Source: Gemmatimonadota bacterium (lineage in GTDB: Bacteria > Gemmatimonadota > Gemmatimonadetes > Palauibacterales > Palauibacteraceae). From it: 64,000 nucleotides of DNA. The translations under genes were made by a program, and so were the position numbers. Below the pieces are notes generated by a model. That model was not told where the DNA came from and ran no database searches. It saw only the letters and a program-made list of their open reading frames with translations. Shown here piece after piece: positions 43,712 through 64,000 of the stretch. Where the stretch lies: contig OY762926.1 of assembly GCA_963666735.1 (NCBI GenBank), forward strand, positions 1,824,001 to 1,888,000, in the 5' to 3' direction. Positions within the stretch are counted from its first letter, which is position 1, and every line of letters begins with the position of its first letter.

Positions 43712-44923
43712 TCAGGATCGGAGAGAGACCCGCGCGAACGCTCGCTTGCCTCGCTGCACGAGATACTCGCCTTCTCCCAGGCGGAGGTCGCCCTCCCGGA
43801 TCACGTTCCCGTCCACCCGGACGGCCCCCTGGCGGATGAGTCGACCCGCCTCGGACGAGGAAGCCGCGAGCCCCGAATCGCGGAGGATGTGCGCGATCCA
43901 GAGCGTCTCCCGCTCTCCGAGAAGGAGCGACACGGAAGGGACGTTCTCGGGCACTTCCCGGCGTCGGTGCAGGCGGTCGAACGCTTCCCGCGCCTCGCCG
44001 GCCGCCTCCGCGCCGTGGTAGCGCGCCACGAGATCTCCGGCCAGCCACCGCTTGGCGGCGAGCGGATCGGTCCCCGCCTGTGCGCGACGGGTGGCGAGTT
44101 CCTCTCCGGAGGCGCTCGATACGAGCACGAGCCACTCGTCGAGCAGCGTGTCCGGGATCGACATCACCCGCCCGAACGTCTCTCTCGCCTCCATCGCGAT
44201 ACCGACGTAGTTGCCGTAGCTCTTGGACATCTTCCGATGCCCGTCGGTCCCGCGCAGAAGCGGCATGATGAGGCACACCTGCGGCTCCTGGCCCGCGCGT
44301 TCCTGCAGCGTCCTCCCCAGCAGCAGGTTGAACAGCTGGTCGGTACCGCCGAGTTCGACATCGGCCCGCAGGGCGACGGAATCGTACCCCTGCATCATCG
44401 GATAGAGGAATTCGACGAGGCTGATGGGACGTCCCTCCCGGTGGCGGGCCGCGAAGTCGTCGCGCTCGAGCATGCGGGCGACCGTGTACTGCGAGGTCAG
44501 TCGCAGGATGTCCGCCAACGCGAGGCCGGCGAGCCATTCGCTGTTCTTCCGGATCTCGGTCGTCTCCGGATCGAGGATGCGAAAGACCTGGTCTTCGTAG
44601 GTGGCCAGGTTCGACTCGATCTCCTCCTCGGACAGCATCGGCCGCGTCTCGTCCCGTCCGCTCGGGTCGCCCACGCGGGCCGTGAAGTCGCCCATCACGA
44701 AGACGACGCGGTGGCCGAGTTCCTGAAATGTCCGCAGCTTGTGGATCGACACGCCGTGGCCGATGTGGAGATCGGGCCGGGTCGGGTCGAACCCCTGTTT
44801 AATAAGGAGGGGCCGGTTCTCTCGTGCCGAACGCTCGAGCTTGGCCACGAGTTCGTCTTCCGGGACGATGGACTCGGCTCCCTCCCGGATCCGGTGGATC
44901 TGTTCGTCTACGGGGAGAAACAT
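43712..44923 (-). CDS. tyrS: tyrosine--tRNA ligase (copy 1)
   Basis: GFDPT..LHIGH, KMSKS, S4-like C-terminus. Confidence 0.97.
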
Positions 44924-45079
44924 CTGCGCCTGGGGTCGGTATATTCCCTATCGTTCCCGTCGCGGGTCGTTCCCGCCCGGGGGCAGCGTGACGATAGAAT
45001 CGGGCCGTCGGCGGTTCGATGCGAGGGGTGAGGTCCGGAAGAACGTGAACGGCCGGGAGATGGCAGGGGGGAAACGGGG

Positions 45080-47266: not shown

Positions 47267-47281
47267 CCGCTTACCCGCCGT

Positions 47282-48583
47282 TCAGGCGATCCGCTCCAGA
47301 ATCAGCGGTTGCGCCCCGGGTGGCTCGGGAGAGAGCCGGATCGCGTCCGTGAGGCGGTGGGCGGCCGTCGCGGCGCTCGCCGCGTCCGCCGCGTGTACGG
47401 TGAGGACAGGTTCGCTTTCGGAGACCCTCTCGCCCGCAATCCGGTGAAACTCGAACCCCACTCTCGGATCGACCGCATCCTCGACGCGCCGGCGACCGGC
47501 GCCGAGTTCCACCGAGGCGACGCCCACCCTGCGGGCGTGGACGTCGAGCCAACCGGAGCCGGGCGATCGGAAGGGTTCGCGGACCGGGGCCGAGGGGAGG
47601 CGCCCGGGATCGTCGGCCACCCGTGGGTCCCCTCCCTGGACCTCGATGAGCCGCGCGAAGCGCTCGAGCGCGACCCCGCTGTCCAGAATCGCTCCGAGTG
47701 CCGTCCGGGCCTCCCCGGCGTCGGGTGCGCCACCGACCGAGACGAGCAACTCGGCGCTCAGCGCGAGGGTGACTTCGCGTAGATCCGCGGGTCCCCCGCC
47801 CCTCAAGGTCTCGATCGCCTCTCGCACCTCCAGCGCGTTGCCGACGGTGCGGCCCAGGGGGGCGTCCATCGCGGTGAGGAGCGCGCTCGTCCGCACCCCC
47901 TCGGCTGCCGCGAGGTCGACCATCGTGCGCGCCAATCCACGCGCCTGCTCACGGTCGGCGATGAAGGCGCCGCGCCCGCACTTCACGTCGAGCACGAGCG
48001 CCCCGATCCCCTCCGCCACCTTCTTGGAAACGATCGAGGCCGCGATCAGGGGTGGGGAAGGAACGGTCCCCGTCACATCCCGGAGGGCGTAGAGACGACC
48101 GTCGAGCGGCGCGATTTCCTTCGTCTGGCCGATCATCGCGCAGCCGACGTCATCGAGAATGGCCTGAAACCGTACGAGATCCAGGGACACGTTGAACCCG
48201 GGGATCGCCTCGAGCTTGTCCAGCGTTCCGCCGGTGTGCCCGAGACCGCGGCCCGACATCATGGGGACGCGAAATCCGGCTTCGGCCAGGAGCGGCGCCA
48301 GGATGAGCGAGACCTTGTCGCCGACGCCGCCGGTGGAATGCTTGTCGACCGTCGGCGGACCGTCTTCCGAGAACCGCAGTCGCGCCCCGGACTCGATGAT
48401 CTCCCGCAGGAGGACGGAAAGCTCGGCGGGATCCAGCCCGCGGATGAACGCGGCCATGAGAAAGGCCGACATCTGATACTCGGCGACGCTTCCGTCGAGG
48501 TACGCGCGCAGGAAGGCCGCGAGTTCGTCGGACGAGAGCCGCTCGCCGTCTCGCTTCTTCTCGATGAGCCGGGTGGGGAGCAT
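47282..48583 (-). CDS. deoA: thymidine/pyrimidine-nucleoside phosphorylase (copy 1)
   Basis: DKHSTGGVGDK, SGRGLGHTGGTLDKLE. Confidence 0.93.
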   Translation of the reverse strand: MLPTRLIEKKRDGERLSSDELAAFLRAYLDGSVAEYQMSAFLMAAFIRGLDPAELSVLLREIIESGARLRFSEDGPPTVDKHSTGGVGDKVSLILAPLLAEAGFRVPMMSGRGLGHTGGTLDKLEAIPGFNVSLDLVRFQAILDDVGCAMIGQTKEIAPLDGRLYALRDVTGTVPSPPLIAASIVSKKVAEGIGALVLDVKCGRGAFIADREQARGLARTMVDLAAAEGVRTSALLTAMDAPLGRTVGNALEVREAIETLRGGGPADLREVTLALSAELLVSVGGAPDAGEARTALGAILDSGVALERFARLIEVQGGDPRVADDPGRLPSAPVREPFRSPGSGWLDVHARRVGVASVELGAGRRRVEDAVDPRVGFEFHRIAGERVSESEPVLTVHAADAASAATAAHRLTDAIRLSPEPPGAQPLILERIA

Positions 48584-48595
48584 GAGCCGCCAACC

Positions 48596-48624
48596 TTGTC
48601 CGGCCCCGGCCCCCTGTCTAGCTT
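48596..48624 (+). promoter_or_regulatory. promoter TTGTCC-17-TAGCTT; possible leaderless transcript for V4R-ruvX-mltG-thiE
   Basis: Both hexamers and the spacing are conserved in the diverged copies (61958-61986); ATG follows within ~7-9 nt. Confidence 0.6.
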
Positions 48625-48631
48625 TTTCGCG

Positions 48632-49129
48632 ATGATCTCCCCCACTCAGGCCCCTGCCGTGATCCTGCCGAGATCGGTCCTCGCGGATCTCTTTCACCGC
48701 TGCGCGAGCCTGGGCGACGCCGGCATCGCGGCGTTGAACGAGGCGGGGGACCGTACCGGCGCGGCGGCCGTCGCGCTGCTCGGCGATTCGCCGGACGCGC
48801 TTTCCGCGGCGGAGTTCTGGACCTTTCTGGACGAGATCCTCCGCAAGGCGGGCCTCGGGTCGATATCGTTCAAGCCGGGAGGAGGAGCTTCCGCCGCCAT
48901 CGCCTGGCGCGACTCGCCGGAGGCCACGACGGCCGGGAATGTCCGCTGCCACTTTTCGGCCGCGCTGTTGCGCGGCGTTCTGAGCCGTGTGGCGGACCGC
49001 GCGGTGGAGGTCGCCGAGGTGCAATGCAGCGGCGGCGGGGAGCCATGCTGGTTCGTGTTCGGATCCGCGGAGGCGATCGAACGACTGCGGATCGGTGGTC
49101 AATCGGGGGCCGGGGACCAGGCGCACTGA
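48632..49129 (+). CDS. V4R-domain-like protein
   Basis: GLGSI..., CHFSAALLRGVLS..., EVQCSGGGEPCWF pattern. Confidence 0.7.
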   Translation: MISPTQAPAVILPRSVLADLFHRCASLGDAGIAALNEAGDRTGAAAVALLGDSPDALSAAEFWTFLDEILRKAGLGSISFKPGGGASAAIAWRDSPEATTAGNVRCHFSAALLRGVLSRVADRAVEVAEVQCSGGGEPCWFVFGSAEAIERLRIGGQSGAGDQAH

Positions 49130-49131
49130 GC

Positions 49132-49596
49132 GTGCCCCGCGGTCGTTTGATGGCGCTCGACTACGGCCGGCGCCGCATCGGGGTGGCCGTCACGGATCCG
49201 ACACAAACGATCGCGGCGCCCCACGGCGTGGTGGAGAGACCCAACCGACGGGCTCCGGGAACCGCGATCCCGGGCGCGCTGACCGAACTCGTGGCGGAAA
49301 TGGATCCGTCCGGCATCCTCGTGGGTATTCCGTTCTCGATGGATGGGACCGCAGGCGAGATGGCTGAAGAGGCGCGGGCCTTCGCCCGGGCTTTGGAGGA
49401 AGCGACGGGAGTACGAACGATCGAGTGGGATGAGCGGTTGTCCACCGCCCGGGCGGAACGAGAGATCCTCAGCATGGATCCGCCTCGAGGCCGGCGGCGG
49501 CGGAAGGGCCGGACGGACGAAATGGCCGCGGCGCTGATGCTCGCCGCTTACCTGCGCAGCGCCCCTGCGGGTGCCGGCGTCCCCCGAGGCCCGTGA
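49132..49596 (+). CDS. ruvX: RuvX/YqgF pre-16S rRNA nuclease (copy 1)
   Basis: ALDYGRRRIGVAVTD, VGIP, WDERLST, DEMAA. Confidence 0.93.
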   Translation: MPRGRLMALDYGRRRIGVAVTDPTQTIAAPHGVVERPNRRAPGTAIPGALTELVAEMDPSGILVGIPFSMDGTAGEMAEEARAFARALEEATGVRTIEWDERLSTARAEREILSMDPPRGRRRRKGRTDEMAAALMLAAYLRSAPAGAGVPRGP

Positions 49597-50624
49597 AACT
49601 CCTGCCGAAACGGACGGGCGTTCGCCTGCTCCTCGCCGCTCTCGCTGCCCTCGCGCCCGTGGCATACGGGTTCTTCTCCGTCGAGTTCCGGGGCCGCGGC
49701 GTTCCCGATGGGTCGGTGGTCGAGGTCCTTGTCCCGGATGGCGCCGCGTCGCTCGAGGTCGCCGGCGTACTCCGGGCGGCGGAGTTGATCTTCCATCCCC
49801 GGATCTTCGACGCGTACGTGCGCCTCAAGGGTCAGGGGCGACAACTGAAGGCCGGCCGGTACGAGATTCCGCGCGGAGCCCCATATCCATACCTGCTCGA
49901 AGCGCTTCGAACCGGAGCGGTCGTGACGACGCCGCTCACGATCCCGGAGGGTCTTCGGGTCCCGCAGGTGGCGGAACGCCTGGCGGTCTACGTCGGCGAT
50001 TCGACCGCGACCGTCCTTGCCTGGCTGACGGATCCGAAGCGGATCGATGAGCTGGAGGTGCCGGGCCCCACGCTGGAGGGGTACCTGTTCCCGGAGACCT
50101 ATCGATTCGCCGATGGTGTCGGAATCCCGGTCATCGTCCGGGCGATCGTCGGACGGTACAGGGGTTTCTGGGGGATGGAGGAGCGCGCTCAAGCTGCCGC
50201 GCTCGGCCTCGATGAACGAGAGATCGTGACGCTCGCGAGCATTGTCGAGAAGGAAGTCCGGTGGGACGACGAGCGTTCGGTGGTCGCGGGGGTCTACTGG
50301 AACCGCCTTCAGCGCGACATGCTGCTGCAGGCGGATCCCACGGTGCAGTACGCCCTCGGCGAGCCGCGCGCACGCCTGCTCTACCGCGACATCGACTCCG
50401 TCGCCGATCACCCCTACAACACCTACACGCAGCAGGGACTGCCGCCCGGGCCCATCGCTTCGCCGGGCGCGGCCTCGCTGCACGCCGCCCTCCGGCCCGC
50501 CGACCACGAGTACATCTTCTTTGTGGCACGAAATGACGGCTCGCACGAGTTCACCCGGACGCTGCGCGAGCACAACAACGCGATAAACCGGATACGCCTC
50601 GACCGCGAGCCGGCGGAACGGTAG
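49593..50624 (+). CDS. mltG: endolytic transglycosylase MltG (copy 1, intact)
   Basis: TIPEG, LEGYLFPETY, LASIVEKE, LQADPTV, GLPPGPI. Confidence 0.95.
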   Translation: MKLLPKRTGVRLLLAALAALAPVAYGFFSVEFRGRGVPDGSVVEVLVPDGAASLEVAGVLRAAELIFHPRIFDAYVRLKGQGRQLKAGRYEIPRGAPYPYLLEALRTGAVVTTPLTIPEGLRVPQVAERLAVYVGDSTATVLAWLTDPKRIDELEVPGPTLEGYLFPETYRFADGVGIPVIVRAIVGRYRGFWGMEERAQAAALGLDEREIVTLASIVEKEVRWDDERSVVAGVYWNRLQRDMLLQADPTVQYALGEPRARLLYRDIDSVADHPYNTYTQQGLPPGPIASPGAASLHAALRPADHEYIFFVARNDGSHEFTRTLREHNNAINRIRLDREPAER

Positions 50625-50637
50625 GACGAGAAGAACC

Positions 50638-50910
50638 ATGCCCGGCTCGCCCACGTCAGATGGCTGGCCTCTGATGGTGATCACGCACCCGCGGCCCGCC
50701 TGCGGCCAGCCGCTCGAGCGGGTCGTGGCCGAATGCGTGGACGCCGGGGCACCCGCGATCCAACTCCGGGACAAGACCGCGGACGGCCGGGCGCTCGCCA
50801 CGACCGCCGCGAGGCTCCGCGCGATCACGGAGTCCGCAGGCTCCAACCTGATCGTGAACGACCGTCTCGATGTCGCGCTCGCCACCGGCGCGGACGGCGT
50901 CCATCTCGGT
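50638..50910 (+). pseudogene. thiE: thiamine-phosphate synthase, N-terminal half only (copy 1, cut at the inversion junction)
   Basis: IQLRDK, IVNDRLDVALA, ADGVHLG, then homology stops abruptly at ~50910. Confidence 0.85.
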
Positions 50911-50929
50911 CGAGAGGCTTACGGGAAGC

Positions 50930-51535
50930 TTAGGGACGCCGGGCGAGATTGAGGAGGCTGCGCACAACCTGGGAGGGCTCGGGGGCGTGCATGACCGCGC
51001 CCAGGACGGCGATGGCGGCGCCGGTGGCGAAGACGGCTGGGGCGTTACGGGCGGTGATGCCCCCGATGCCGAAACAGGGAATCCCGCTTGAGCGAAGCAC
51101 GGCTCGCACGCGCTCGGGACCGACGGCCTCATGGGCCAGGCCGGGCTTGGAGTGCGTCCCGAACACGGCCCCGACGCCGAGATAGTCGGCGCCGGCGCGG
51201 GCCGCGCGGCGGGCTTCGGTGGGATCGTCGGTGGAGTAACCGATGAGGAAGCCCTTGGGAGCGAGTTCGCGCGCGGCGTGGAGGGGGAGGTCGTCCGGGC
51301 CGAGGTGGACGCCGTCGGCCCCGGCGGCGAGGGCGACGTCTAGGCGGTCGTTGACGATGAGAAGCGCGCCGGAGCCGTCCATGGCGGCGCGGAGGGCCGC
51401 GGCTTGGGCGGTGAGCGCCCGTGCGTCGGCGGTCTTGTCGCGAAGCTGAATGACCGGCACCCCGGCGGCCACGCACTCGGCGACGACTTGGTGCAGGGGG
51501 CGACCGCTGCGCGGGCGGGGATGCGTCAGCACCAT
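50930..51535 (-). CDS. thiE: thiamine-phosphate synthase (copy 2, complete)
   Basis: QLRDK, NDR, GVHLG, GADYLGVGAVFGTHSK, IGGI. Confidence 0.92.
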   Translation of the reverse strand: MVLTHPRPRSGRPLHQVVAECVAAGVPVIQLRDKTADARALTAQAAALRAAMDGSGALLIVNDRLDVALAAGADGVHLGPDDLPLHAARELAPKGFLIGYSTDDPTEARRAARAGADYLGVGAVFGTHSKPGLAHEAVGPERVRAVLRSSGIPCFGIGGITARNAPAVFATGAAIAVLGAVMHAPEPSQVVRSLLNLARRP

Positions 51536-51576
51536 GACCCGGGCGGCCGCCAGGCGCGAGCGTGGGCCGGGCGGCG

Positions 51577-52550
51577 TCAGCGTTGGGCGGCGTCGCGCGC
51601 GAGCCGGATGCGGTTTCGGGCGTCGTTGTGCTCGCGCAGCGTGCGCGTGAACTCGTGCCGCCCGTCACCCCGCGCCACGAAGAAGATGTAGTCGTGCTCG
51701 GCGGGGTGGAGGGCGGCGCGCAGCGACGCGGCCCCCGGCGAGGCGATCGGACCCGGCGGCAGCCCCGGCTGCGTGTACGTGTTATACGGGTGATCCGCGA
51801 CCGAATCGATATCGCGATACAGGAGCCGCGCGCGCGGTTCCCCGAGGGCGAACTGCACGGTCGGATCGGCTTGGAGGAGCATCCCCCTCCGCAGACGGTT
51901 CCAATACACGCCGGAGACGGTGCGCCGCTCGTCCCCCCATAGGACCTCCTTCTCGACGATACTGGCGAGCGTCACGACCTCCCGCTCCTCCATCCCGATT
52001 TCAGCGGCGCGCGCGCCCTCCTCCTCACCCCAGAACGCCTTGTACCGGCCGACCATGGCGGTCACGATCGCCGGGACCCCGACCCCTTCCGCGAAGCGGT
52101 ACGTCTCGGGGAAGAGGTAGCCCTCGAGCGTGGGGCCTCTCCCGTGTACTCCGCGATCCGTTCCGCCACGGCTTCGACCCGCAGGCCCTCCGGGATCGTG
52201 AGCGGGGTGGTGGCGACGGCCCCGTCGCGCAGAACCTTGAGCAGGTAGGCGTACGATGCACCGCGCGGGATTTCGTACCGGCCGGCCTTCAGGACTCGCG
52301 CCGCACCCCGAAGGCGAACGTAGGTGTCGAAGATGCGCGCATGGAAGATCAGCTCCTCCGCCTCGAGAAGACGCGCGATCTGCCGCGACGAGAAGCCCGC
52401 GGGCACGCGGATATCGATCGCCGATCCATCCGGGATGCCGGGTCCCCGAAACTCGGTGGAAAGGAACCCGTACACCACCGGCGCCGCGGCCACCAACGCG
52501 GCGGCGAGCAGACCGCGGCGCGTCCTCGGTGGCGGCGGCGCGCGGGTCAT
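51577..52550 (-). pseudogene. mltG: mltG copy 2, frameshifted by an internal deletion
   Basis: N- and C-terminal halves are in different frames; ~64 nt missing at ~52138 relative to copy 1. Confidence 0.88.
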
Positions 52551-53011
52551 GAGCCGGGGGCACGGATCGGGCCGGCGGGGCGCATGGGGCCGGCGGTCGC
52601 GCCGCTCCGCAGATACGCGGACAACATCAGAGCCGCCGCCAGCTCGTCGGTTCGCCCCTTCAGCCGCCGTTTGGCGCGCGACAGCGCCATGCCGGCGAGC
52701 TCTCGCTCGGCGCGCGCCGTCGAGAGCCGCTCGTCCCACTCGGCGGTGCGGACACCCGTGGCCTCCTCAACGGCTCGCGCGAAGGTCCGCGCCTCGGTGG
52801 CCATCGCACCCGCCGTCCCATCCATTGAGAAGGGAATCCCCACCAGAATGACGGCGGGCTCCAGCTCCGCCACGAGCGCCACCAGCGCGTCAGGCACCGT
52901 GGCCACCGGATCGGCGGGGGAACGGTCGACCACGCCGTGCGGGGCCGCGATCGTCCGGGTTGGATCCGTCACGGCGACACCAATGCGCCGCCGGCCGTAG
53001 TCAAGCGCCAT
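52547..53011 (-). CDS. ruvX: RuvX/YqgF (copy 2)
   Basis: MALDYGRRRIGVAVTD...WDERLST. Confidence 0.9.
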   Translation of the reverse strand: MALDYGRRRIGVAVTDPTRTIAAPHGVVDRSPADPVATVPDALVALVAELEPAVILVGIPFSMDGTAGAMATEARTFARAVEEATGVRTAEWDERLSTARAERELAGMALSRAKRRLKGRTDELAAALMLSAYLRSGATAGPMRPAGPIRAPGS

Positions 53012-53031
53012 CAGCCGGCTCCCCGGCGGGG

Positions 53032-53157
53032 TCAGGTCCACGGCCCCCCCGCGAGCCAAGTGTGCGCATACGACGGTTGGCCGGTGGGGCTGCGCGTGGG
53101 GGCCGAGCAGGCGGCGCTCGGGGGGAGGACGCCGGCGAGCGGGGTGGAGGGCTTCAT
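53032..53157 (-). pseudogene. remnant at the position of the V4R gene
   Basis: Same promoter and ATG position as copy 1, but only a 41-codon ORF remains. Confidence 0.6.
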
Positions 53158-53265
53158 CGGAACCGAAAGCTAGACAGCGGACCGGGGCCGGACAAGCTTT
53201 GCCCCGCACCGTCACCACAAGCGGCCGGGTCGCGGCGGCGCCCCGTTACCAGTAAGGAGAGGCGA

Positions 53266-54567
53266 TTGCTCCCAACCCGAGTCATCGAGAAGAAGCGGGA
53301 CGGCGGACGGCTCAACGATGACGAGCTGCGGACGTTCCTACGGGCGTACCTCGACGGTGACGTCGCCGACTACCAGATGTCGGCCTTCCTCATGGCGTCC
53401 TTCATCCAGGGCCTCGCTGCGGGTGAGCTCTCGGTGCTCACCCGGGAGATCATCGCGTCCGGCGCGCGCCTCGAGTTCGCGGACTTGGGTGGACCGCTGG
53501 TGGACAAGCACTCGACGGGAGGCGTCGGCGACAAGGTGTCGCTCGTGCTCGCGCCACTGCTTGCCGAGGCAGGGCTGCGCGTCCCCATGATGTCGGGCCG
53601 CGGTCTGGGGCACACCGGCGGAACGTTGGACAAGCTTGAGGCCATCCCGGGGTTCCAGGTGTCTATCGGTCTCGACCGCTTCCGCGCCATCCTGGACGAC
53701 GTGGGCTGCGCGATGATCGGCCAAACGACGCAGATCGCGCCGCTCGACGGCCGGCTCTACGCCCTCCGCGACGTGACCGGAACCGTGCCCTCAACGCCGC
53801 TCATCGCCGCCTCCATCGTCTCCAAGAAGGTGGCCGAGGGGATCGGCGCGCTGGTGCTTGACGTGAAGTGCGGCCGGGGTGCCTTCATGACCGATGAGCG
53901 CCGCGCGCGTGAGCTGGCCCAGACGATGGTCGCGCTCGCGGCCGCCGAGGGCGTGCGCACCACCGCCCTGCTCACGGCCATGGATGCGCCGCTGGGCCGC
54001 GCGGTGGGCAACGCCCTCGAAGTACGTGAAGCCATCGAAACGCTGCGGGGCGGCGGACCCGCGGACCTGCGGGCGGTGACGATCGCCCTCGCCGCGGAGC
54101 TCCTCGTTTCCGCGGGGCGCGCGACCGGTGCCAAGCAAGCCACGGCGACACTTGCCCCGATCCTCGAGAGCGGCGGCGCGCTCGGGCGCTTCGCCCGCCT
54201 CATCGAGGCCCAGGGGGGCGACCCGCGCGTGGCCGACGACCCCGGGCGCCTCCCTGTGGCGGCGGGCCGCACACCGTTTCGATCGCCCGGCGCGGGCTGG
54301 CTCGATGTTCACGCGCTCGAAGTCGGGTTCGCGTCGGTCGAGCTGGGGGCGGGCCGCCGCCGCGTCGATGACGCGGTGGATCCGACGGTCGGCTTCGAGT
54401 TTCACCGCGTCCAGGGCGACCGCGTGTCTGAAGGCGAAACCCTCGTCACGGTCCACGCGGCCAATGAGGCGGATGCCCGCCGGGCGCTCGACCGCCTCGT
54501 CGGGGCGGTCAGGCTTTACCCCGAACCTCCGCCTCCGCCGCGTTGGATCCTCGGTCGGATGGCGTGA
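53266..54567 (+). CDS. deoA: thymidine phosphorylase (copy 2)
   Basis: TTG start after AAGGAGAGG; same length as copy 1 (1302 nt). Confidence 0.92.
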   Translation: MLPTRVIEKKRDGGRLNDDELRTFLRAYLDGDVADYQMSAFLMASFIQGLAAGELSVLTREIIASGARLEFADLGGPLVDKHSTGGVGDKVSLVLAPLLAEAGLRVPMMSGRGLGHTGGTLDKLEAIPGFQVSIGLDRFRAILDDVGCAMIGQTTQIAPLDGRLYALRDVTGTVPSTPLIAASIVSKKVAEGIGALVLDVKCGRGAFMTDERRARELAQTMVALAAAEGVRTTALLTAMDAPLGRAVGNALEVREAIETLRGGGPADLRAVTIALAAELLVSAGRATGAKQATATLAPILESGGALGRFARLIEAQGGDPRVADDPGRLPVAAGRTPFRSPGAGWLDVHALEVGFASVELGAGRRRVDDAVDPTVGFEFHRVQGDRVSEGETLVTVHAANEADARRALDRLVGAVRLYPEPPPPPRWILGRMA

Positions 54568-54683
54568 CACTAACCCGCACGCCTCGGCAATTCGTTTCGC
54601 GGCGGCCGACGGGGCTCCGGACGGCAGCTGAGGCGCGTCCGTGCTGGCCCGCGCTGCTGCGTATAGTGCGTGTGGCGTTGTAC

Positions 54684-56925
54684 TTAGCGCGGGGCTAGGT
54701 GGCGGCGGAGGGGGGCGCGGGCGCTCCACGGGCCGTGCGCATCGCACATTTCGGTCGGCTCGGTGCCCTCGAGGTAGATCTCGACGTAGCTGAGTTCGAC
54801 CGGGCACCATCGCGTCGAGAGCAGGCCCGTGGTCTCGTCCACGGTCCGCTCGATCAGGCCCTGCGGCCGTTCCCACGGATCGGGGTGCGGATGCCTCTCA
54901 TAATAATGAGCCAGCACGGCCGCGCCGACGGGTGCCGCCGTTCCGCCGCCCGTCGCCCCCCGGTAGATCCGGCGGGGCCGGTCAAACCCAACCCAGGTCG
55001 TGGTGACAAGATCAGGCGTGAGTCCCACGAACCACGTTCGTGGCGTCGTTGGTCGTGCCCGTCTTGCCCGCCACCGGCACCGTGAACGGGATCGCATACC
55101 GGGAGCGCACCGCCAGCGTGCCCGTGCCCTGGTCCACGGCGTCCCGGAGCATGGACTGGGCGATCCACGCGATGTCCGGCTCAAGCACGCGCTCCCGCTG
55201 CACCGGGCTCTCCCACAGCACCCGGCCCTCCTTGCTTTCGACGAGCAGGATGGACCGGGGAGAGACGCGGACGCCGACGTTGGCGAAGGTCGTGTAGGCG
55301 GTCGCGACCTCGATCGGCCGCAGGTCCACGGAACCGATCGCGGCGGAGGGAACCCTGGGCACGCGCGAGGCGACGCCCATGCGCTCGGCCATCTGCGCGA
55401 ACGACTCCTCGCCGACGCGCTGCCCCAGCTTGACCGCGACGACGTTGATCGAACGGGCCAGCGCCCGGCGCAGCGTCAGGGGCCCCTTGAAGTCCTCCTC
55501 GAAGTTGGCGGGGGCATAGGGGTCGCCCCCGACGTTCTCGAGGCAGTAGGGCTGGTCGTAGATGATCTCGGACGCGGGAATCCCGGACGCGATCGCGGTC
55601 GCGTACACAAACGGCTTGAACACCGATCCCGGCTGGCGGAGGGCCTGCGTCGCGCGGTTGAATTCCGAGTCGCCGAAATCCCGCCCGCCCACGAGGGCGC
55701 GCACATCGCCCGTTGCCGCGTCGAGGGCGATGAACATCCCTTGGAGGTACGGCATCTCCGCGCCTCCGCGGCTGACTTGGTACAGGCTGTCCGGCGGCCA
55801 TGCCCGCACCTCCTCGAAGGTGACGCCGGAAAAGGCCGGGTGCCGGTCCACCCACTCCAGCTGGGCGAGCAGGGCCGAGTCGGCCACCGCCTGCAGATCC
55901 GGGTCGAGCGTCGTGTAGACCCGGAATCCCTTCTCATAAATGTCCGTCCCGTAGCGGTCGTAGAGACGCTGCCGCACCCACTCCACGAAATAGGGCGCCT
56001 CCCGCTCGATGCGCGCTCCCCGCGCCAGCTCCAGCGGATACGCCTTGGCGGCCTCGGCGTCCTCCACGCTAACCAGGCCCTGCGCCGCCATCAGCTCGAG
56101 GACCAGATTGCGGCGGCCGATGGCCCGCTCCGGCCGGCGGAGCGGATTGTACCCGGCGGGATTCCGCGGGATCGCCGCCAGCAACGCCGCCTCCGGCAGG
56201 TTCAGCTGGGCGGCGGTCTTTGCGAAGTACCGCTCCGCCGCCGCCTGAACGCCGAACACACCGTCGAAGTTGATCTGGTTGAGATAGGCCTCGAGGATCT
56301 CCTGCTTGCTGTACGCGCGCTCGAGGTCGATGGCGACGCGCATCTCCCGCAGCTTGCGGCGGACCGTAATGTCCCGGCGGTCCACGGACCCCTCGAACAT
56401 GTTCCCCGCGAGCTGCTGCGTGATCGAGCTTCCGCCCTGCGCGCCATATCCTTTAATTAGGAAGTCCGCGAACGCGCGCGCGGTCCGCCACGGATCGACG
56501 CCCGCGTGCGCCCAGAAGCGCTTGTCCTCGATCGCGATGAACGCGTTGTACACGTGCCGCGGGAGCTCGTTCATCCGGATCGGCGTGCGGCGCTCGACGG
56601 CAAGCTCCGCGAGGAGGGACCCGTCCGCCGCGTAGAGCTTCGTCGCCTCCTTCGGCTCGAAGGCGTAGATCTGGGCGATGGATGGGCACTGGTCGCACAC
56701 ATGCGTCCAACCCCGCCACGTGACGCCGGCCCCGAACGTGGCCCCCACCAGAATCGCGAGCGCCGCCGCCTTCCTCAACCAAGCCACGGCGCCACCTCGC
56801 CGGCGAGTCCGCAGGCCCCGCGCCGGGCTTGGGCGAGTTCTTCCGCGTCGTCCGCGTCCGCGCCTCCGTCCGCGCGACCGCCTGGCGGCGCGTCTCCGCC
56901 GGTTTGGCCGCGCGCGGCGGCTCAT
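54684..56925 (-). pseudogene. PBP1A copy 2, frameshifted after the KTG motif
   Basis: 2-nt loss at ~55036 moves the WFVG... C-terminus into another frame. Confidence 0.85.
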
Positions 56926-57132
56926 GGCGCCGTACCTGGGAATCGCCCCGGTTTGCCCGGGGGGCGCGGTGTGCGCGCCACGGTGTGCAAGCCCCTCACG
57001 CGTCCCTCCAACCTCGTCCCCTCGCTCCCCTCGTCCCCGAACCGCTCGCGTCCGGCCGCCGAGAGACCGATTCTATCGCGACGCGGCTTCCGGCGGGAGC
57101 CATCACCTCGATACTACCGACCCTTGGCGCGG

Positions 57133-58344
57133 ATGTTTCTCCCCGTAAACGAACAACTCAAGCGAATTCGAGAGGGGGCCGAGCGCATCGTGCCGGAAGG
57201 CGATCTCGCCGCCAAGCTCGAGCGCGCCACGCGCGCGCGTAGGCTCCTCATCGTCAAGCAGGGTTTCGATCCAACCCGGCCGGACCTCCACATCGGGCAC
57301 GGCGTGTCGATCCATAAGCTGCGGACGTTCCAAGAGCTCGGGCACCGCGTGGTCTTCGTGATGGGCGACTTCACGGCCCGGGTCGGCGACCCGAGCGGGA
57401 GGGACGATACGCGGCCCATGCTGTCGGAGGAGGAGATCGAGGCGAACCTGGCCACGTACGAGGACCAGCTCTTCCGCATCCTCGATCCGGACACCACGGA
57501 AATCCGGAGGAACAGCGAGTGGCTGGCGGGCTTGAGGCTCGCCGATATCCTCCGCCTCACGTCGCAATACACGGTGGCGCGCATGCTCGAGCGCGACGAC
57601 TTCGCCGCCCGGCACCGCGAGGGGCGCCCCATCAGCCTCGTCGAGTTCCTCTATCCGATGATGCAGGGCTACGATTCCGTCGCGCTTCGCGCCGATGTCG
57701 AGCTCGGGGGCACGGACCAGCTCTTCAACCTGCTCTTGGGCAGGACGCTGCAGGAGCGGGCCGGGCAGGAGCCCCAGGTGTGTCTGATCATGCCGCTCCT
57801 CCGCGGGACGGACGGCCACCGAAAGATGTCGAAGAGCTACGGCAACTACATCGGGATTTCGACGCCGCCAAACGAGGCGTTCGGGCGCGTGATGTCGATT
57901 CCGGACGCGCTTCTCGACGAGTGGCTGGTGCTCGCCTCCGGCACCCATGGCAAGGAGATCGCGGCGCGCCGGGAGCAGGCCCGGACCGACCCTTTGGGCA
58001 CCAAGCGGTGGCTCGCCCGCAACATCGTGGCGCGGTACCACGGGACGTCCGCCGCCGCGACGGCGCGCGAGGCCTTCGACCGCCTCCACCGGCGCCGCGA
58101 AGTGCCCGAGGACATCCCCGCCGTCACTCTTGGCCTTGCGGAGCGCCAGACGGCTTGGATCGCGCACGTCCTCCGCGACACCGGCCTCGCCGCGTCCTCG
58201 TCGGAGGCGGGCCGGTTGATCCGCCAAGGGGCCGTGAGGATCGACGGCGACGTGGTCAGGGACCGCAACCTACAGCTCCCTGTGGGTGAGTACTTGGTCC
58301 AGCGGGGCAAGCGCCGCTTCACAGGCGTGTCGATCCAGCCCTGA
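57133..58344 (+). CDS. tyrS: tyrosine--tRNA ligase (copy 2, intact, 403 aa)
   Basis: HIGH and KMSKS; same length as copy 1. Confidence 0.95.
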   Translation: MFLPVNEQLKRIREGAERIVPEGDLAAKLERATRARRLLIVKQGFDPTRPDLHIGHGVSIHKLRTFQELGHRVVFVMGDFTARVGDPSGRDDTRPMLSEEEIEANLATYEDQLFRILDPDTTEIRRNSEWLAGLRLADILRLTSQYTVARMLERDDFAARHREGRPISLVEFLYPMMQGYDSVALRADVELGGTDQLFNLLLGRTLQERAGQEPQVCLIMPLLRGTDGHRKMSKSYGNYIGISTPPNEAFGRVMSIPDALLDEWLVLASGTHGKEIAARREQARTDPLGTKRWLARNIVARYHGTSAAATAREAFDRLHRRREVPEDIPAVTLGLAERQTAWIAHVLRDTGLAASSSEAGRLIRQGAVRIDGDVVRDRNLQLPVGEYLVQRGKRRFTGVSIQP

Positions 58345-58502
58345 CACGGCCGGCGGGGAGTCTCGCGCTGCCGATGGCGAGGGTTGGGGGGTGTCGACGA
58401 CCCGCCGCTCTCCGGCCATGAGGTCTCCAAGCCCCAAACCCTGATTGGAAGGAGATCTCTTGATCTGCGAGATGTGGGGCCTTAGGCTCCGAGTTCCGGG
58501 AG

Positions 58503-58542
58503 CTTACAGATTCAGACTCAACCTTACAGATTCAGACTCAAC
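58503..58542 (+). repeat. perfect 20-bp tandem duplication CTTACAGATTCAGACTCAAC x2
   Basis: Read directly; immediately precedes the GGAGG RBS. Confidence 0.95.
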
Positions 58543-58553
58543 GTGGAGGCCTC

Positions 58554-59051
58554 ATGAGACGACTCGTACCGATACTGCTCGGACTGCTCGTTGCCAGCTC
58601 GTGCGTAGACGTTGGCACTGCGGGGCCCGGCTCAGCATCGGCTGTTTCCGGGGGTTTCGAACTGGGCGTCTTGGCGGACTGTGATCCCTCCGATGAGCAT
58701 CCCTGCCCGCCACCCCCGCCTCCACCCCCGCCACCCCCGCCGCAGCCACCCTGTCTGGAGTGTCCCGAGCCACCACCCCCACCGCCACCTCCGCCCCCAC
58801 CCCGGCCCGACCCGCCTTGCGGTCTCGATTGCCCGCCACCACTGCCAGTACCACCAAATCCGCCGCCGCCACCACCCCCGCCACCGCCGCCAGTGAATGC
58901 TTGTTTCTTTATGGCAGAGTACTGTTCGCTGTGCGAAGAAAATCCTATGCACCCATTGTATTGCGAGCAGTGTGAGCTTTACACAAAGCAGTGTGATGAC
59001 ATGGGTGACATGGGTGACACGCGGCGTCCGGACGGGCTCCGTGTGTGTTAA
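58554..59051 (+). CDS. polyproline/cysteine-rich putative lipoprotein
   Basis: GGAGG RBS; signal peptide ending VASSC; three poly-Pro tracts separated by Cys pairs; Cys-rich tail. Confidence 0.7.
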   Translation: MRRLVPILLGLLVASSCVDVGTAGPGSASAVSGGFELGVLADCDPSDEHPCPPPPPPPPPPPPQPPCLECPEPPPPPPPPPPPRPDPPCGLDCPPPLPVPPNPPPPPPPPPPPVNACFFMAEYCSLCEENPMHPLYCEQCELYTKQCDDMGDMGDTRRPDGLRVC

Positions 59052-59168
59052 GAGTATAGTCGAAAGCGTCGGGGCTCTCGTGCGAAGACGCAAGACGGTG
59101 ATTGCTCCCCGGACACGGACGCAAAGATACCAGCGTTGAGCAGCACCCAACATCGAATCGAGAATGGA

Positions 59169-59900
59169 GTGGAGATCGTGAAGGGCGCGGCGGCGGCGTC
59201 GCTGTACGGTTCGCGCGCGCAGAACGGCGTCATCGAGATCACGACGAAGCGCGGCACGAGCCTGCAGACGAACTCGCTCAACATCCTCGTTCGGGGGGAG
59301 TACGGGACCAGCCAGCTCGTCGGTGACGTTGGACTCACCCGTTCGCACCCGTACCTCATGAACGCCCAGGGCACGCTCTTCATCGATTCGGATGGCAACG
59401 AGGTCCAGTTCACGGACCTCAGCCGTCCCGGGTTCGGCGCGCCGGTGCTCGCCAACCAGATCAATCCCGGTGAACCCGGCGACTCGTTCACGTCGTTCGC
59501 CAACCAGGCGTTCCCGCACGAACTCTTCGACCACATGGACACGTTCTTCGATCCAGGCGAGACGATGGACGTCTACTCGGCCGTGACGGGCCGCTTCGGC
59601 GAGTCGAGCTTCCGCGTGAGCGTGGACCAGTTCATGGAGGGCGGCGTTGTGCGCTGCGCGCCCTGCATCGACAACCTCAGCACGCTCAACGCCGATCGCG
59701 TCGCGCAAGGCCTGACGCCCTTCGACGTCGGCCTCCCGGATGACGACGGCTACGAGCGCCAGAACGTCCGCCTGAACGTGGACACGCGCTTCGGCGACCT
59801 GGACATCGCCGCGAGCGGCTTCTACTCGCGCGCCGACCAGGACGACAAGGCGCTCGAGAACGGCGCCTTCAGCCAGTTGACGTTCGCTTCGCCTGCGGTC
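59169..59900 (+). pseudogene. internal fragment of a fourth SusC, closest to pair 2
   Basis: VEIVKGAAAASLYGSRAQ...FSQLTFASPAV; lacks the N-terminus and most of the barrel. Confidence 0.9.
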
Positions 59901-60469
59901 CATCCTGCTCGTCGAAAGCAAGGAGGGCCGGGTGCTGTGGGAGAGCCCGGTGCAGCGGGAGCGCGTGCTTGAGCCGGACATCGCGTGGATCGCCCAGTCC
60001 ATGCTCCGGGACGCCGTGGACCAGGGCACGGGCACGCTGGCGGTGCGCTCCCGGTATGCGATCCCGTTCACGGTGCCGGTGGCGGGCAAGACGGGCACGA
60101 CCAACGACGCCACGAACGTGGTTCGTGGGACTCACGCCTGATCTTGTCACCACGACCTGGGTTGGGTTTGACCGGCCCCGCCGGATCTACCGGGGGGCGA
60201 CGGGCGGCGGAACGGCGGCACCCGTCGGCGCGGCCGTGCTGGCTCATTATTATGAGAGGCATCCGCACCCCGATCCGTGGGAACGGCCGCAGGGCCTGAT
60301 CGAGCGGACCGTGGACGAGACCACGGGCCTGCTCTCGACGCGATGGTGCCCGGTCGAACTCAGCTACGTCGAGATCTACCTCGAGGGCACCGAGCCGACC
60401 GAAATGTGCGATGCGCACGGCCCGTGGAGCGCCCGCGCCCCCCTCCGCCGCCACCTAGCCCCGCGCTAA
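59896..60469 (+). pseudogene. PBP1A 3' fragment (copy 3) with the same frameshift as copy 2
   Basis: Mirror of 54684-55257. Confidence 0.88.
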
Positions 60470-60585
60470 GTACAACGCCACACGCACTATACGCAGCAGC
60501 GCGGGCCAGCACGGACGCGCCTCAGCTGCCGTCCGGAGCCCCGTCGGCCGCCGCGAAACGAATTGCCGAGGCGTGCGGGTTAGTG

Positions 60586-61887
60586 TCACGCCATCCGACC
60601 GAGGATCCAACGCGGCGGAGGCGGAGGTTCGGGGTAAAGCCTGACCGCCCCGACGAGGCGGTCGAGCGCCCGGCGGGCATCCGCCTCATTGGCCGCGTGG
60701 ACCGTGACGAGGGTTTCGCCTTCAGACACGCGGTCGCCCTGGACGCGGTGAAACTCGAAGCCGACCGTCGGATCCACCGCGTCATCGACGCGGCGGCGGC
60801 CCGCCCCCAGCTCGACCGACGCGAACCCGACTTCGAGCGCGTGAACATCGAGCCAGCCCGCGCCGGGCGATCGAAACGGTGTGCGGCCCGCCGCCACAGG
60901 GAGGCGCCCGGGGTCGTCGGCCACGCGCGGGTCGCCCCCCTGGGCCTCGATGAGGCGGGCGAAGCGCCCGAGCGCGCCGCCGCTCTCGAGGATCGGGGCA
61001 AGTGTCGCCGTGGCTTGCTTGGCACCGGTCGCGCGCCCCGCGGAAACGAGGAGCTCCGCGGCGAGGGCGATCGTCACCGCCCGCAGGTCCGCGGGTCCGC
61101 CGCCCCGCAGCGTTTCGATGGCTTCACGTACTTCGAGGGCGTTGCCCACCGCGCGGCCCAGCGGCGCATCCATGGCCGTGAGCAGGGCGGTGGTGCGCAC
61201 GCCCTCGGCGGCCGCGAGCGCGACCATCGTCTGGGCCAGCTCACGCGCGCGGCGCTCATCGGTCATGAAGGCACCCCGGCCGCACTTCACGTCAAGCACC
61301 AGCGCGCCGATCCCCTCGGCCACCTTCTTGGAGACGATGGAGGCGGCGATGAGCGGCGTTGAGGGCACGGTTCCGGTCACGTCGCGGAGGGCGTAGAGCC
61401 GGCCGTCGAGCGGCGCGATCTGCGTCGTTTGGCCGATCATCGCGCAGCCCACGTCGTCCAGGATGGCGCGGAAGCGGTCGAGACCGATAGACACCTGGAA
61501 CCCCGGGATGGCCTCAAGCTTGTCCAACGTTCCGCCGGTGTGCCCCAGACCGCGGCCCGACATCATGGGGACGCGCAGCCCTGCCTCGGCAAGCAGTGGC
61601 GCGAGCACGAGCGACACCTTGTCGCCGACGCCTCCCGTCGAGTGCTTGTCCACCAGCGGTCCACCCAAGTCCGCGAACTCGAGGCGCGCGCCGGACGCGA
61701 TGATCTCCCGGGTGAGCACCGAGAGCTCACCCGCAGCGAGGCCCTGGATGAAGGACGCCATGAGGAAGGCCGACATCTGGTAGTCGGCGACGTCACCGTC
61801 GAGGTACGCCCGTAGGAACGTCCGCAGCTCGTCATCGTTGAGCCGTCCGCCGTCCCGCTTCTTCTCGATGACTCGGGTTGGGAGCAA
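60586..61887 (-). CDS. deoA: thymidine phosphorylase (copy 3)
   Basis: Identical translation to copy 2. Confidence 0.9.
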   Translation of the reverse strand: MLPTRVIEKKRDGGRLNDDELRTFLRAYLDGDVADYQMSAFLMASFIQGLAAGELSVLTREIIASGARLEFADLGGPLVDKHSTGGVGDKVSLVLAPLLAEAGLRVPMMSGRGLGHTGGTLDKLEAIPGFQVSIGLDRFRAILDDVGCAMIGQTTQIAPLDGRLYALRDVTGTVPSTPLIAASIVSKKVAEGIGALVLDVKCGRGAFMTDERRARELAQTMVALAAAEGVRTTALLTAMDAPLGRAVGNALEVREAIETLRGGGPADLRAVTIALAAELLVSAGRATGAKQATATLAPILESGGALGRFARLIEAQGGDPRVADDPGRLPVAAGRTPFRSPGAGWLDVHALEVGFASVELGAGRRRVDDAVDPTVGFEFHRVQGDRVSEGETLVTVHAANEADARRALDRLVGAVRLYPEPPPPPRWILGRMA

Positions 61888-62141
61888 TCGCCTCTCCTTA
61901 CTGGTAACGGGGCGCCGCCGCGACCCGGCCGCTTGTGGTGACGGTGCGGGGCAAAGCTTGTCCGGCCCCGGTCCGCTGTCTAGCTTTCGGTTCCGATGAA
62001 GCCCTCCACCCCGCTCGCCGGCGTCCTCCCCCCGAGCGCCGCCTGCTCGGCCCCCACGCGCAGCCCCACCGGCCAACCGTCGTATGCGCACACTTGGCTC
62101 GCGGGGGGGCCGTGGACCTGACCCCGCCGGGGAGCCGGCTG

Positions 62142-62606
62142 ATGGCGCTTGACTACGGCCGGCGGCGCATTGGTGTCGCCGTGACGGATCCAACCCGGAC
62201 GATCGCGGCCCCGCACGGCGTGGTCGACCGTTCCCCCGCCGATCCGGTGGCCACGGTGCCTGACGCGCTGGTGGCGCTCGTGGCGGAGCTGGAGCCCGCC
62301 GTCATTCTGGTGGGGATTCCCTTCTCAATGGATGGGACGGCGGGTGCGATGGCCACCGAGGCGCGGACCTTCGCGCGAGCCGTTGAGGAGGCCACGGGTG
62401 TCCGCACCGCCGAGTGGGACGAGCGGCTCTCGACGGCGCGCGCCGAGCGAGAGCTCGCCGGCATGGCGCTGTCGCGCGCCAAACGGCGGCTGAAGGGGCG
62501 AACCGACGAGCTGGCGGCGGCTCTGATGTTGTCCGCGTATCTGCGGAGCGGCGCGACCGCCGGCCCCATGCGCCCCGCCGGCCCGATCCGTGCCCCCGGC
62601 TCATGA
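62142..62606 (+). CDS. ruvX: RuvX/YqgF (copy 3)
   Basis: Identical translation to copy 2. Confidence 0.9.
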   Translation: MALDYGRRRIGVAVTDPTRTIAAPHGVVDRSPADPVATVPDALVALVAELEPAVILVGIPFSMDGTAGAMATEARTFARAVEEATGVRTAEWDERLSTARAERELAGMALSRAKRRLKGRTDELAAALMLSAYLRSGATAGPMRPAGPIRAPGS

Positions 62607-63576
62607 CCCGCGCGCCGCCGCCACCGAGGACGCGCCGCGGTCTGCTCGCCGCCGCGTTGGTGGCCGCGGCGCCGGTGGTGTACGGGTTCCTTTCCACCGA
62701 GTTTCGGGGACCCGGCATCCCGGATGGATCGGCGATCGATATCCGCGTGCCCGCGGGCTTCTCGTCGCGGCAGATCGCGCGTCTTCTCGAGGCGGAGGAG
62801 CTGATCTTCCATGCGCGCATCTTCGACACCTACGTTCGCCTTCGGGGTGCGGCGCGAGTCCTGAAGGCCGGCCGGTACGAAATCCCGCGCGGTGCATCGT
62901 ACGCCTACCTGCTCAAGGTTCTGCGCGACGGGGCCGTCGCCACCACCCCGCTCACGATCCCGGAGGGCCTGCGGGTCGAAGCCGTGGCGGAACGGATCGC
63001 GGAGTACACGGGAGAGGCCCCACGCTCGAGGGCTACCTCTTCCCCGAGACGTACCGCTTCGCGGAAGGGGTCGGGGTCCCGGCGATCGTGACCGCCATGG
63101 TCGGCCGGTACAAGGCGTTCTGGGGTGAGGAGGAGGGCGCGCGCGCCGCTGAAATCGGGATGGAGGAGCGGGAGGTCGTGACGCTCGCCAGTATCGTCGA
63201 GAAGGAGGTCCTATGGGGGGACGAGCGGCGCACCGTCTCCGGCGTGTATTGGAACCGTCTGCGGAGGGGGATGCTCCTCCAAGCCGATCCGACCGTGCAG
63301 TTCGCCCTCGGGGAACCGCGCGCGCGGCTCCTGTATCGCGATATCGATTCGGTCGCGGATCACCCGTATAACACGTACACGCAGCCGGGGCTGCCGCCGG
63401 GTCCGATCGCCTCGCCGGGGGCCGCGTCGCTGCGCGCCGCCCTCCACCCCGCCGAGCACGACTACATCTTCTTCGTGGCGCGGGGTGACGGGCGGCACGA
63501 GTTCACGCGCACGCTGCGCGAGCACAACGACGCCCGAAACCGCATCCGGCTCGCGCGCGACGCCGCCCAACGCTGA
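62603..63576 (+). pseudogene. mltG: mltG copy 3 with the same deletion/frameshift
   Basis: Junction at 63015/63016. Confidence 0.88.
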
Positions 63577-63617
63577 CGCCGCCCGGCCCACGCTCGCGCC
63601 TGGCGGCCGCCCGGGTC

Positions 63618-64000
63618 ATGGTGCTGACGCATCCCCGCCCGCGCAGCGGTCGCCCCCTGCACCAAGTCGTCGCCGAGTGCGTGGCCGCCGGGGTGCCGGT
63701 CATTCAGCTTCGCGACAAGACCGCCGACGCACGGGCGCTCACCGCCCAAGCCGCGGCCCTCCGCGCCGCCATGGACGGCTCCGGCGCGCTTCTCATCGTC
63801 AACGACCGCCTAGACGTCGCCCTCGCCGCCGGGGCCGACGGCGTCCACCTCGGCCCGGACGACCTCCCCCTCCACGCCGCGCGCGAACTCGCTCCCAAGG
63901 GCTTCCTCATCGGTTACTCCACCGACGATCCCACCGAAGCCCGCCGCGCGGCCCGCGCCGGCGCCGACTATCTCGGCGTCGGGGCCGTGTTCGGGACGCA
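63618..64000 (+). CDS. thiE: thiE copy 3 (runs off the window)
   Basis: Mirror of 51153-51535. Confidence 0.88.
   Translation, partial: MVLTHPRPRSGRPLHQVVAECVAAGVPVIQLRDKTADARALTAQAAALRAAMDGSGALLIVNDRLDVALAAGADGVHLGPDDLPLHAARELAPKGFLIGYSTDDPTEARRAARAGADYLGVGAVFGT

Follow-up and report, generated by a model that had tools for sequence, protein, structure and literature searches.

The window considered here, a 64,000-nt stretch of the genome of a Gemmatimonadota bacterium (G000), holds a small open reading frame (ORF) whose product combines a predicted signal peptide and lipobox, a proline stalk punctuated by cysteines and a compact acidic tip. The ORF lies in a non-homologous insert between the second of two tyrS copies and a truncated susC fragment, and the coordinates of these and other features are collected in Table 1.

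Table 1. Features at and around the ORF (window positions, unless the genome contig G000:C1 is given)
Feature	Position	Strand	Remarks
Foreign duplicated block (thiE-like, mltG, ruvX, pdp, PBP1A, tyrS)	50910..64000		the names thiE-like, mltG, ruvX and pdp are presumed from the sequences
Perfect 4348-nt inverted duplication	50910-55257 / 59896-64243		housekeeping genes; ends just before rRNA genes
tyrS copy 2, 5' neighbour	57130..58344	+	about 80% identical to copy 1 and to congeners
Non-homologous insert, 824 nt	58345..59168		replaces susC leader and first about 220-250 susC codons
Perfect 20-nt tandem duplication	58503..58542	+	just 5' of the ribosome-binding site; present in G008 with one mismatch
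Shine-Dalgarno GGAGG	58545..58549	+	4 nt 5' of the ATG
ORF	58554-59051	+	165 aa; 14 Cys
Signal peptide and lipobox, Cys17 the predicted lipidation site	58554..58604	+	mean hydropathy 2.3 over residues 4-16
Flexible spacer and Cys43-x7-Cys51 loop (one disulfide likely)	58605..58706	+	pLDDT < 60
Proline stalk, residues 52-113; Pro runs of 12, 11 and 11, with CLEC and CGLDC	58707..58892	+	length-variable
Tip, residues 114-149; acidic; predicted helix-loop-helix; hypervariable between alleles	58893..59000	+	six Cys aligned in P0002
Tail, residues 150-165, last residue the odd Cys165 (probably unpaired)	59001..59051	+	low pLDDT
5'-truncated susC fragment, 3' neighbour	59169..59907	+	
Small exported Cys-rich ORFs elsewhere in the genome	G000:C1:1912133, 1921279, 1931583, 2188954, 2414876, 2417131, 2420538, 2901716, 2901986, 3873180, 3876819

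The first-pass annotation had described the ORF as a lipoprotein with a signal peptide, a lipobox-like Cys and the motifs CLEC, CGLDC, CSLC and CEQC, all of which are present. The three proline runs that it listed are also there, although the last is 11 rather than 12 residues long, and the proline codons are mixed as it stated (CCA 19, CCG 17, CCC 13 and CCT 4 of 53); CCA accounts for 2.3% of the proline codons of long genes and for 13 of 187 in the other poly-Pro tracts of the genome. Its remark that the region is less GC-rich than its flanks holds for the ORF as a whole (64.3%, against 68.1% in tyrS copy 2) but not evenly along it, the dip being mostly owed to the tip and tail (50.3%) and the stalk reaching 77.2%. 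The GC3 of the ORF is 0.58-0.59 against a median of 0.87, and none of 1278 long genes, a set picked by codon score, is as low; its own codon score, -0.51, is atypical.

The lipobox was judged by a PROSITE-type rule, which residues 1-17 satisfy and which still holds in the allele carrying A14T. In bacterial lipoproteins the lipobox Cys is expected at about residue 15-35, and its position here, together with the basic N-terminus and the hydrophobic stretch that follows, agrees with a substrate of signal peptidase II. A search of 58300-59250 revealed no sigma-70 promoter consensus; around the insert there was likewise no sign of a promoter, terminator or terminal inverted repeat, and an Rfam search of the locus (L017) gave no match. 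An alternative coding frame, including an antisense poly-Gly gene, was rejected, as the other five frames carry 3 to 8 stops each over 58500-59100 and show no synonymous excess. Two small repeats were also seen: the DMGDMGD of the tail is coded by short 9-nt tandem repeats (58994-59020), and a 14-nt direct repeat, 86% alike, lies at 58339-58352, at the tyrS stop, and at 59108-59121, near the other end of the insert, where it is possibly an attachment scar or else a product of chance.

The insert belongs to a larger foreign block, a second copy of a set of housekeeping genes that is about 72-83% identical to the native copy. Here the two tyrS genes are about 80% identical (window 43712-50909 vs 50910-58344). 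Copy 1 is followed by susC, the order also found at 27 of 28 congener tyrS loci, and no counterpart of the gene occurs there, as the first-pass annotation had observed. In the tree copy 2 falls outside the main clade of the genus, in which copy 1 is placed, and that clade is moderately supported (90/87). None of 114 family genomes qualifies as the donor of copy 2, the best match being 80% identical once G008, the one other genome that carries the block, is set aside. Between G008 and G000 identity is 92% in the native region and 99-100% in the block, whereas G017, which is closer to G000 (95%), is without it, so that the block has, as we infer from these identities, moved recently between species. 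The proposal that the gene was acquired laterally is thus borne out, because its codon use is foreign and it lies in a divergent tyrS block that is 99-100% shared against 92% in native DNA. The inverted duplication looks like the outcome of an integration event with one end anchored in rRNA and the other joined illegitimately, and could explain part of the 4.67% contamination figure of the genome. The block has since been eroded. In G000 its copies of PBP1A and mltG carry frameshifts, tyrS copy 2 being intact there, and in G008 deletions have removed 56, 240 and about 2860 nt from it besides part of the stalk, the 240-nt deletion falling in tyrS copy 2. The joints of these deletions (L016:16954-19603) overlap by 3-13 nt each, against 14 nt at the stalk joint, and the erosion in G008 is, judged by such joints, microhomology-mediated decay. 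Separately, the 23S rRNA gene of G008 contains a group I intron (L016:12666-13330; Rfam 59.2 bits; window-relative position in G000 about 65464), a 640-nt piece of which is absent from G000, while a gap of equal size suggests its presence in G017.

Among the 36 genomes of the genus the insert is seen only in G000 and G008, so that one of the 35 congeners of G000 has the gene, flanked there too by tyrS copy 2 and the fragment of susC. A search of 114 family genomes found it besides G000 only in G008, and a genome contig search matched only the G008 contig. Of 22 listed sequencing runs, 19 contain all or part of the stretch, and in 11 of these all the sampled words are present; two of the 11 are flagged as possible sources, and the other nine come from three studies. 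No RNA run is among those listed, which carries no information on expression. Run labels include sponge metagenome (four runs) and coral metagenome (one). Three runs (X16, X17 and X19) contain pieces of the stretch only, with no differences, a 4348-nt contig occurs at about double depth in run X12, and a contig spanning the junction in X14. An assembly artefact is ruled out by G008, in which the gene has identical surroundings.

Only three alleles were available for comparison, that of the window (G000), that of G008, which recurs in run X13 and was counted once, and that of X15, known from a single Logan contig of a coral run at depth 7, for which the listing covers 20 of the 23 differences and 6 of the 9 gap letters. 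The G008 allele, identically in X13, has a 150-nt in-frame deletion in the stalk with 14-nt microhomology at its joint, by which 50 residues and four Cys are gone. No amino-acid change is listed in the tail across the three alleles, and it is in the tip that they differ most.

The six tip cysteines are spaced as a mirror image, C117-x6-C124-x2-C127-x9-C137-x2-C140-x6-C147, a pattern for which the tip is the sole strict match across the six frames of the genome. AlphaFold, run on the single sequence of the G000 allele, predicts two helices (113-129 and 134-149; pLDDT 81-85), and the same two helices are predicted for the G008 allele (pLDDT 77-84); in both models the rest of the protein is extended or of low confidence, with no folded N-terminal domain. 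Because the spacing is mirrored on antiparallel helices, a ladder of three disulfides would fit, with C117-C147, C124-C140 and C127-C137 as the predicted pairs (1-6/2-5/3-4). Structure searches with the models returned generic hairpins only (best Z 5.6 and 4.4).

The claim that the gene is an orphan proved too strong. When 1.84 billion representatives were scanned, with the allele of G008 as query, seven matches were obtained at E <= 0.001, of which six involved poly-Pro only and were dropped. The seventh, P0002, is a metagenomic protein of 125 aa (Logan, ENA; a singleton cluster) that matches with E 3e-5 and 30% identity over 110 aa. It is acidic and has a signal, a C-x6-C loop, poly-Pro and C-x6-C-x2-C-x11-C-x2-C-x6-C, the first C-x6-C pair preceding the poly-Pro at the same place as the Cys43/Cys51 loop. 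All six tip cysteines are aligned, with a loop of 11 rather than 9, and P0002 is the one homologue found, a distant one. Its tip-only score against the G008 tip is reached by none of 20000 shuffles with fixed cysteines and that against the window tip by 94 of 20000. Unlike the window protein it is without a lipobox, has one short Pro run and lacks both the punctuating stalk cysteines and the terminal Cys, leaving eight Cys, an even number, after the signal region. It keeps 3 of 15 tip residues that are invariant among the alleles, against 4 of 15 that vary. As P0002 keeps the layout but not the lipobox, the layout would be old and conserved, the anchor optional and the family small or poorly sampled.

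Beyond this one protein, searches were unproductive. Pfam, NCBIfam, PHROGs, PADLOC and exact look-ups gave no useful match for the protein, so no well-known family emerged from the profile collections, and an exact look-up of P0002 gave no name. A word-index search of a 5.8-billion set scored none of 1536 candidates, further queries being without candidates, and a blank from the ESM Atlas speaks for neither novelty nor absence. Across 401 genomes of the phylum, queries with the tip, the N-terminus and a three-row profile yielded four weak matches only, all off-frame and due to chance. At least four metagenome contigs matched, and those listed proved on inspection to be chance matches. No homologue was found in viral contigs or, with P0002 as query, in plasmids and phages. 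The family and its combination of traits were not encountered in the literature as surveyed by titles and the beginnings of abstracts; PMC10469786, in the portion consulted, mentions neither lipoprotein nor proline. The separate parts are known in kind.

P0002 also bears on whether the ORF is genuine. A chance ORF or an assembly chimera might be suspected from the atypical codon score, from a site between the arms of a perfect inverted duplication and from the contamination figure of the genome. This reading is barely credible, since G008 and the Logan contigs from other studies both show the same context, the competing frames show the stops and the lack of synonymous excess described above, and P0002 keeps the whole layout, which largely refutes it.

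The same comparison shifts attention from the stalk to the tip. The first-pass annotation had singled out the rod punctuated by cysteines, yet the punctuation is dispensable or lost in the G008 allele and absent from P0002; the conserved unit is, on these comparisons, the six-Cys tip. An architecture in which the stalk and terminal cysteines polymerise the protein into a disulfide-cross-linked surface coat, in the manner of minicollagen flanks, would account for the CxxC and CxxxC pairs along the stalk and for the odd number of non-lipid cysteines in both full alleles (13 and 9), which leaves Cys165 free for an intermolecular bond. We regard it as improbable, given that four stalk cysteines are lost in G008 and absent in P0002, whose cysteines are even in number with none at the terminus, that collagen and CRD motifs are absent, and that a hypervariable tip is not expected of a structural polymer. 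Cys165 may nevertheless dimerise the protein.

The variation of the tip is pronounced. Its G008 version differs from that of the window by nine substitutions, which make eight amino-acid changes, and its X15 version by 14 substitutions and two in-frame losses of 3 nt. In G008 this amounts to 9 of 108 nt, against 15 of 4486 nt in the shared block, a 25-fold excess (Fisher 1.5e-9), and in X15 to 14 substitutions in the 108 tip nt against 6 in the other 390 nt of the ORF (3e-6). Each of the three allele branches carries changes (5, 4 and 9), and residues 135 and 146 have three states each. Across the three alleles the tip has 17 variable sites, spread over the codon positions as 6/6/5, of which none is synonymous, none lies in a Cys codon and none creates a stop; the five third-position changes are all Asp/Glu transversions. 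In helix 2 all seven variable residues lie opposite the Cys face (permutation P 0.007) and in helix 1 there is no face bias (P 0.25), in a test that scored N115 and D148 as invariant although the X15 indels touch both. Under uniform neutral change the joint chance of the tip pattern is 0.5-2e-4, for a region that was chosen post hoc. Some elements of this pattern are less telling than they seem. On its own the absence of synonymous change is unremarkable, because 10 of 11 coding substitutions in the housekeeping copies of the block are non-synonymous as well, and 0/17 against 1/11 synonymous are indistinguishable (Fisher 0.39). The in-frame indels are weak evidence, because both microhomology between Pro codons and trinucleotide slippage are inherently in frame. 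What stands out in the tip is its rate of change together with the sparing of its cysteines, the latter having on its own a P of 0.03-0.08.

A diversity-generating arrangement was considered, with the tip as a DGR target, but no template repeat was found: the best off-target ungapped match in G000 covers 43 of 91 invariant positions. No second copy of the tip was found in G008. Seven of the 17 tip sites involve A on either strand, counted without reference to any template. Two genes for RVT_1 reverse transcriptases lie far away in the genome (G000:C1:3852213-3852881 and 1082147-1082800).

These observations must be set against the condition of the block. The gene might be a passenger, once functional in its donor and now decaying with the DNA around it, its tip differences being patches introduced by recombination from older divergent alleles or the result of local hypermutability rather than of current selection. 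The frameshifted PBP1A and mltG copies in G000, the losses from block and stalk in G008, the non-synonymous background of the block, the lack of a promoter consensus and the even spread of tip sites over codon positions would all suit such a fate. Patches from old functional alleles should, however, carry synonymous changes, which none of the 17 sites does; the acceleration affects all three branches, the third-position changes are uniformly Asp/Glu transversions, and the full-length allele persists unchanged, by sampled words, in the nine non-source runs from three studies. On balance we consider a passenger rather unlikely. The reading that we prefer, to which we give about an even chance, is that of a tethered binding miniprotein stapled by disulfides and under diversifying selection, facing a host protein or a phage.

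Could the tip bind metal instead? Its two CxxC pairs might hold Zn or Cu for capture or buffering, since CxxC-x9-CxxC is reminiscent of a zinc knuckle, and one His as well as acidic residues are at hand. Weak matches were obtained to DENR, at E 0.023 (the three-row profile gave 0.2), and, also at E 0.023, to an anti-sigma family whose cut-off lies far above the score. Both models, however, place the CxxC pairs inside helices rather than knuckles, the weak matches cover half of the motif only, and the hypervariability would go unexplained. The compartment into which bacterial proteins are exported is oxidising, and the protein is exported. Metal binding is therefore decidedly improbable.

The first-pass annotation had further proposed an architecture like that of eukaryotic proteins, by analogy with minicollagens, extensins and pherophorins, with which the protein has in common a signal peptide, long Pro runs and adjacent Cys clusters. 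Each of these families was rejected by its definition, as outlined in the excerpts consulted. A minicollagen (PMC7981951) has the signal peptide and polyproline stretches seen here, but there is no run of three Gly-X-Y and no C...C...C...C...CC domain; the repeated Ser-Pro3-5 and Tyr-X-Tyr of extensins (PMC4769139) are absent; and pherophorins consist of two globular domains flanking a Pro-rich rod (PMC9818292), whereas here neither a match to their Pfam domain nor a folded N-terminal domain in the models was obtained. The eukaryote-like origin is unsupported, because the named families fail and poly-Pro after a lipobox is common in the genome, and the export and translation signals are bacterial. 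Such a tether is in fact something of a house style, for 15 other ORFs of G000 with lipobox and poly-Pro pass a rough filter, some of whose rows are doubtful and which missed the ORF at 58554-59051 by one hydrophobic residue; these other Pro-tethered lipoproteins have larger domains with at most 2.1% Cys. In another genome (G051), a large lipoprotein with Ig-like repeats (L019) has about 70 uninterrupted prolines.

A related proposal is host mimicry, by which exposed poly-Pro would recruit profilin, SH3 or WW proteins of the sponge. Actin-recruiting bacterial proteins use poly-Pro recruitment in this way, and the Pro runs of 11-12 residues and the weak, poly-Pro-only matches to BimA (E 0.41) and PRIMA1 (E 0.029) would be in line with it. 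It is nonetheless most improbable, as there is no [FL]PPPP motif and no WH2-type Pfam match, many ordinary lipoproteins of the genome have comparable Pro runs after the lipobox, and selection acts on the tip rather than on the stalk, whose length varies. What speaks for it more generally is that sponge symbionts use eukaryotic-like proteins to counter phagocytosis, according to the excerpt consulted of PMC13747020.

The closest formal likeness of the tip is to other disulfide hairpins. In the twin CX9C (CHCH) proteins of mitochondria, as described in excerpts of PMC10653836, PMC12114033 and PMC4571295, a two-helix hairpin carries nested disulfides; C117-x9-C127 and C137-x9-C147 fit this motif, as do Cys 75/85 and 97/107 of P0002, with the hairpin predicted and the nesting probable in our case. 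The tip is unlike CHCH proteins in its extra Cys pair 124/140, bacterial signal peptide, Shine-Dalgarno sequence and Pro stalk, the CHCH Pfam profile gave no match up to E 10, nor is a bacterial gene of this kind a mitochondrial Mia40 substrate, and the resemblance is likely convergent. CHCH or B-IV-like chains are not among the structure matches listed, which does not exclude them. Alpha-hairpinins, vicilin-buried peptides and the nemertean B-IV peptides share with the tip a predicted fold, a ladder-like Cys pairing and tolerance of a variable surface, but are free eukaryotic peptides with 0, 2 or 4 disulfides (bioRxiv 10.1101/2020.05.26.118075, PMC11722136, PMC7191063, in the portions consulted); ladder hairpins with one or three disulfides had not been structurally described according to the excerpt of the first of these, from 2020. 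The tip differs in being bacterial, tethered and acidic, with three predicted disulfides and no CX3C...CX3C, and the alpha-hairpinin motif XnC1X3C2XnC3X3C4Xn, as given in the excerpt of PMC7191063, is absent from it.

The genome itself offers partial parallels. In G000 there are seven DsbA-like matches, and besides the ORF at hand 11 small Cys-rich ORFs with export signals (Table 1), among which those near 2.41-2.42 Mb and 3.87 Mb adjoin DsbA-like genes and several end in a CC motif. The mini-protein at G000:C1:3873180, itself next to a DsbA-like gene, has a mirrored Cys spacing (3,6,7,6,3) like that of the tip. None of these ORFs has sequence similarity to it, 34 to 427 of 500 shuffles scoring equally.

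Under the preferred reading of a tethered binding miniprotein, the protein would be exported and lipidated at Cys17, and a DsbA-like enzyme of the genome may oxidise the tip cysteines. Polyproline-II rises by 0.31 nm per residue, so that the stalk, as a rod of this kind, could hold a rigid acidic hairpin up to about 19 nm away from its anchor, and 4 nm in the short allele. The tip would then be exposed at the cell surface, where its outward face would change under selection to bind or to evade a partner from host or phage. This partner is probably basic, given an acidic tip in which five changes exchange Asp and Glu. A benefit to the cell is also suggested by retention of the scaffold, because a mere phage receptor would be more simply lost than retuned. 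Of the role first proposed for the protein, a disulfide-cross-linked one at the surface or in adhesion, what can be kept is an exported, probably lipid-anchored Cys- and Pro-rich protein, for which an interaction at the surface is plausible because the tip is hypervariable.

If the gene should after all be a passenger, it would provide a clear case of an orphan gene riding on a cross-species block that duplicated housekeeping genes. A bolder proposal, tentative and on the whole unlikely, is that with this protein a hitherto undescribed family of bacteria comes to light for the first time, made up of exported binders built on a three-disulfide helical hairpin, convergent with mitochondrial twin-CX9C proteins and with the hairpin peptides of animals and plants; a sponge symbiont would display it on a Pro rod of adjustable length, the benefit it brings would have carried a foreign block of 13 kb from one species into another, and the tip would now be keeping pace, in real time, with a phage or a recognition protein of the sponge. 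Should the three-disulfide ladder be true, it would give a bacterial example of a fold class that is described mainly in eukaryotes and, in the excerpt consulted of the 2020 preprint, has 0, 2 or 4 disulfides. How sponge symbionts are recognised, tolerated or preyed upon is a largely open field in which the known candidates are large repeat proteins. In this setting an arms race has a compact marker in a scaffold of 36 residues whose cysteines stay fixed while its surface changes fast, and its three natural tip versions can be made and used to pull down the partner.
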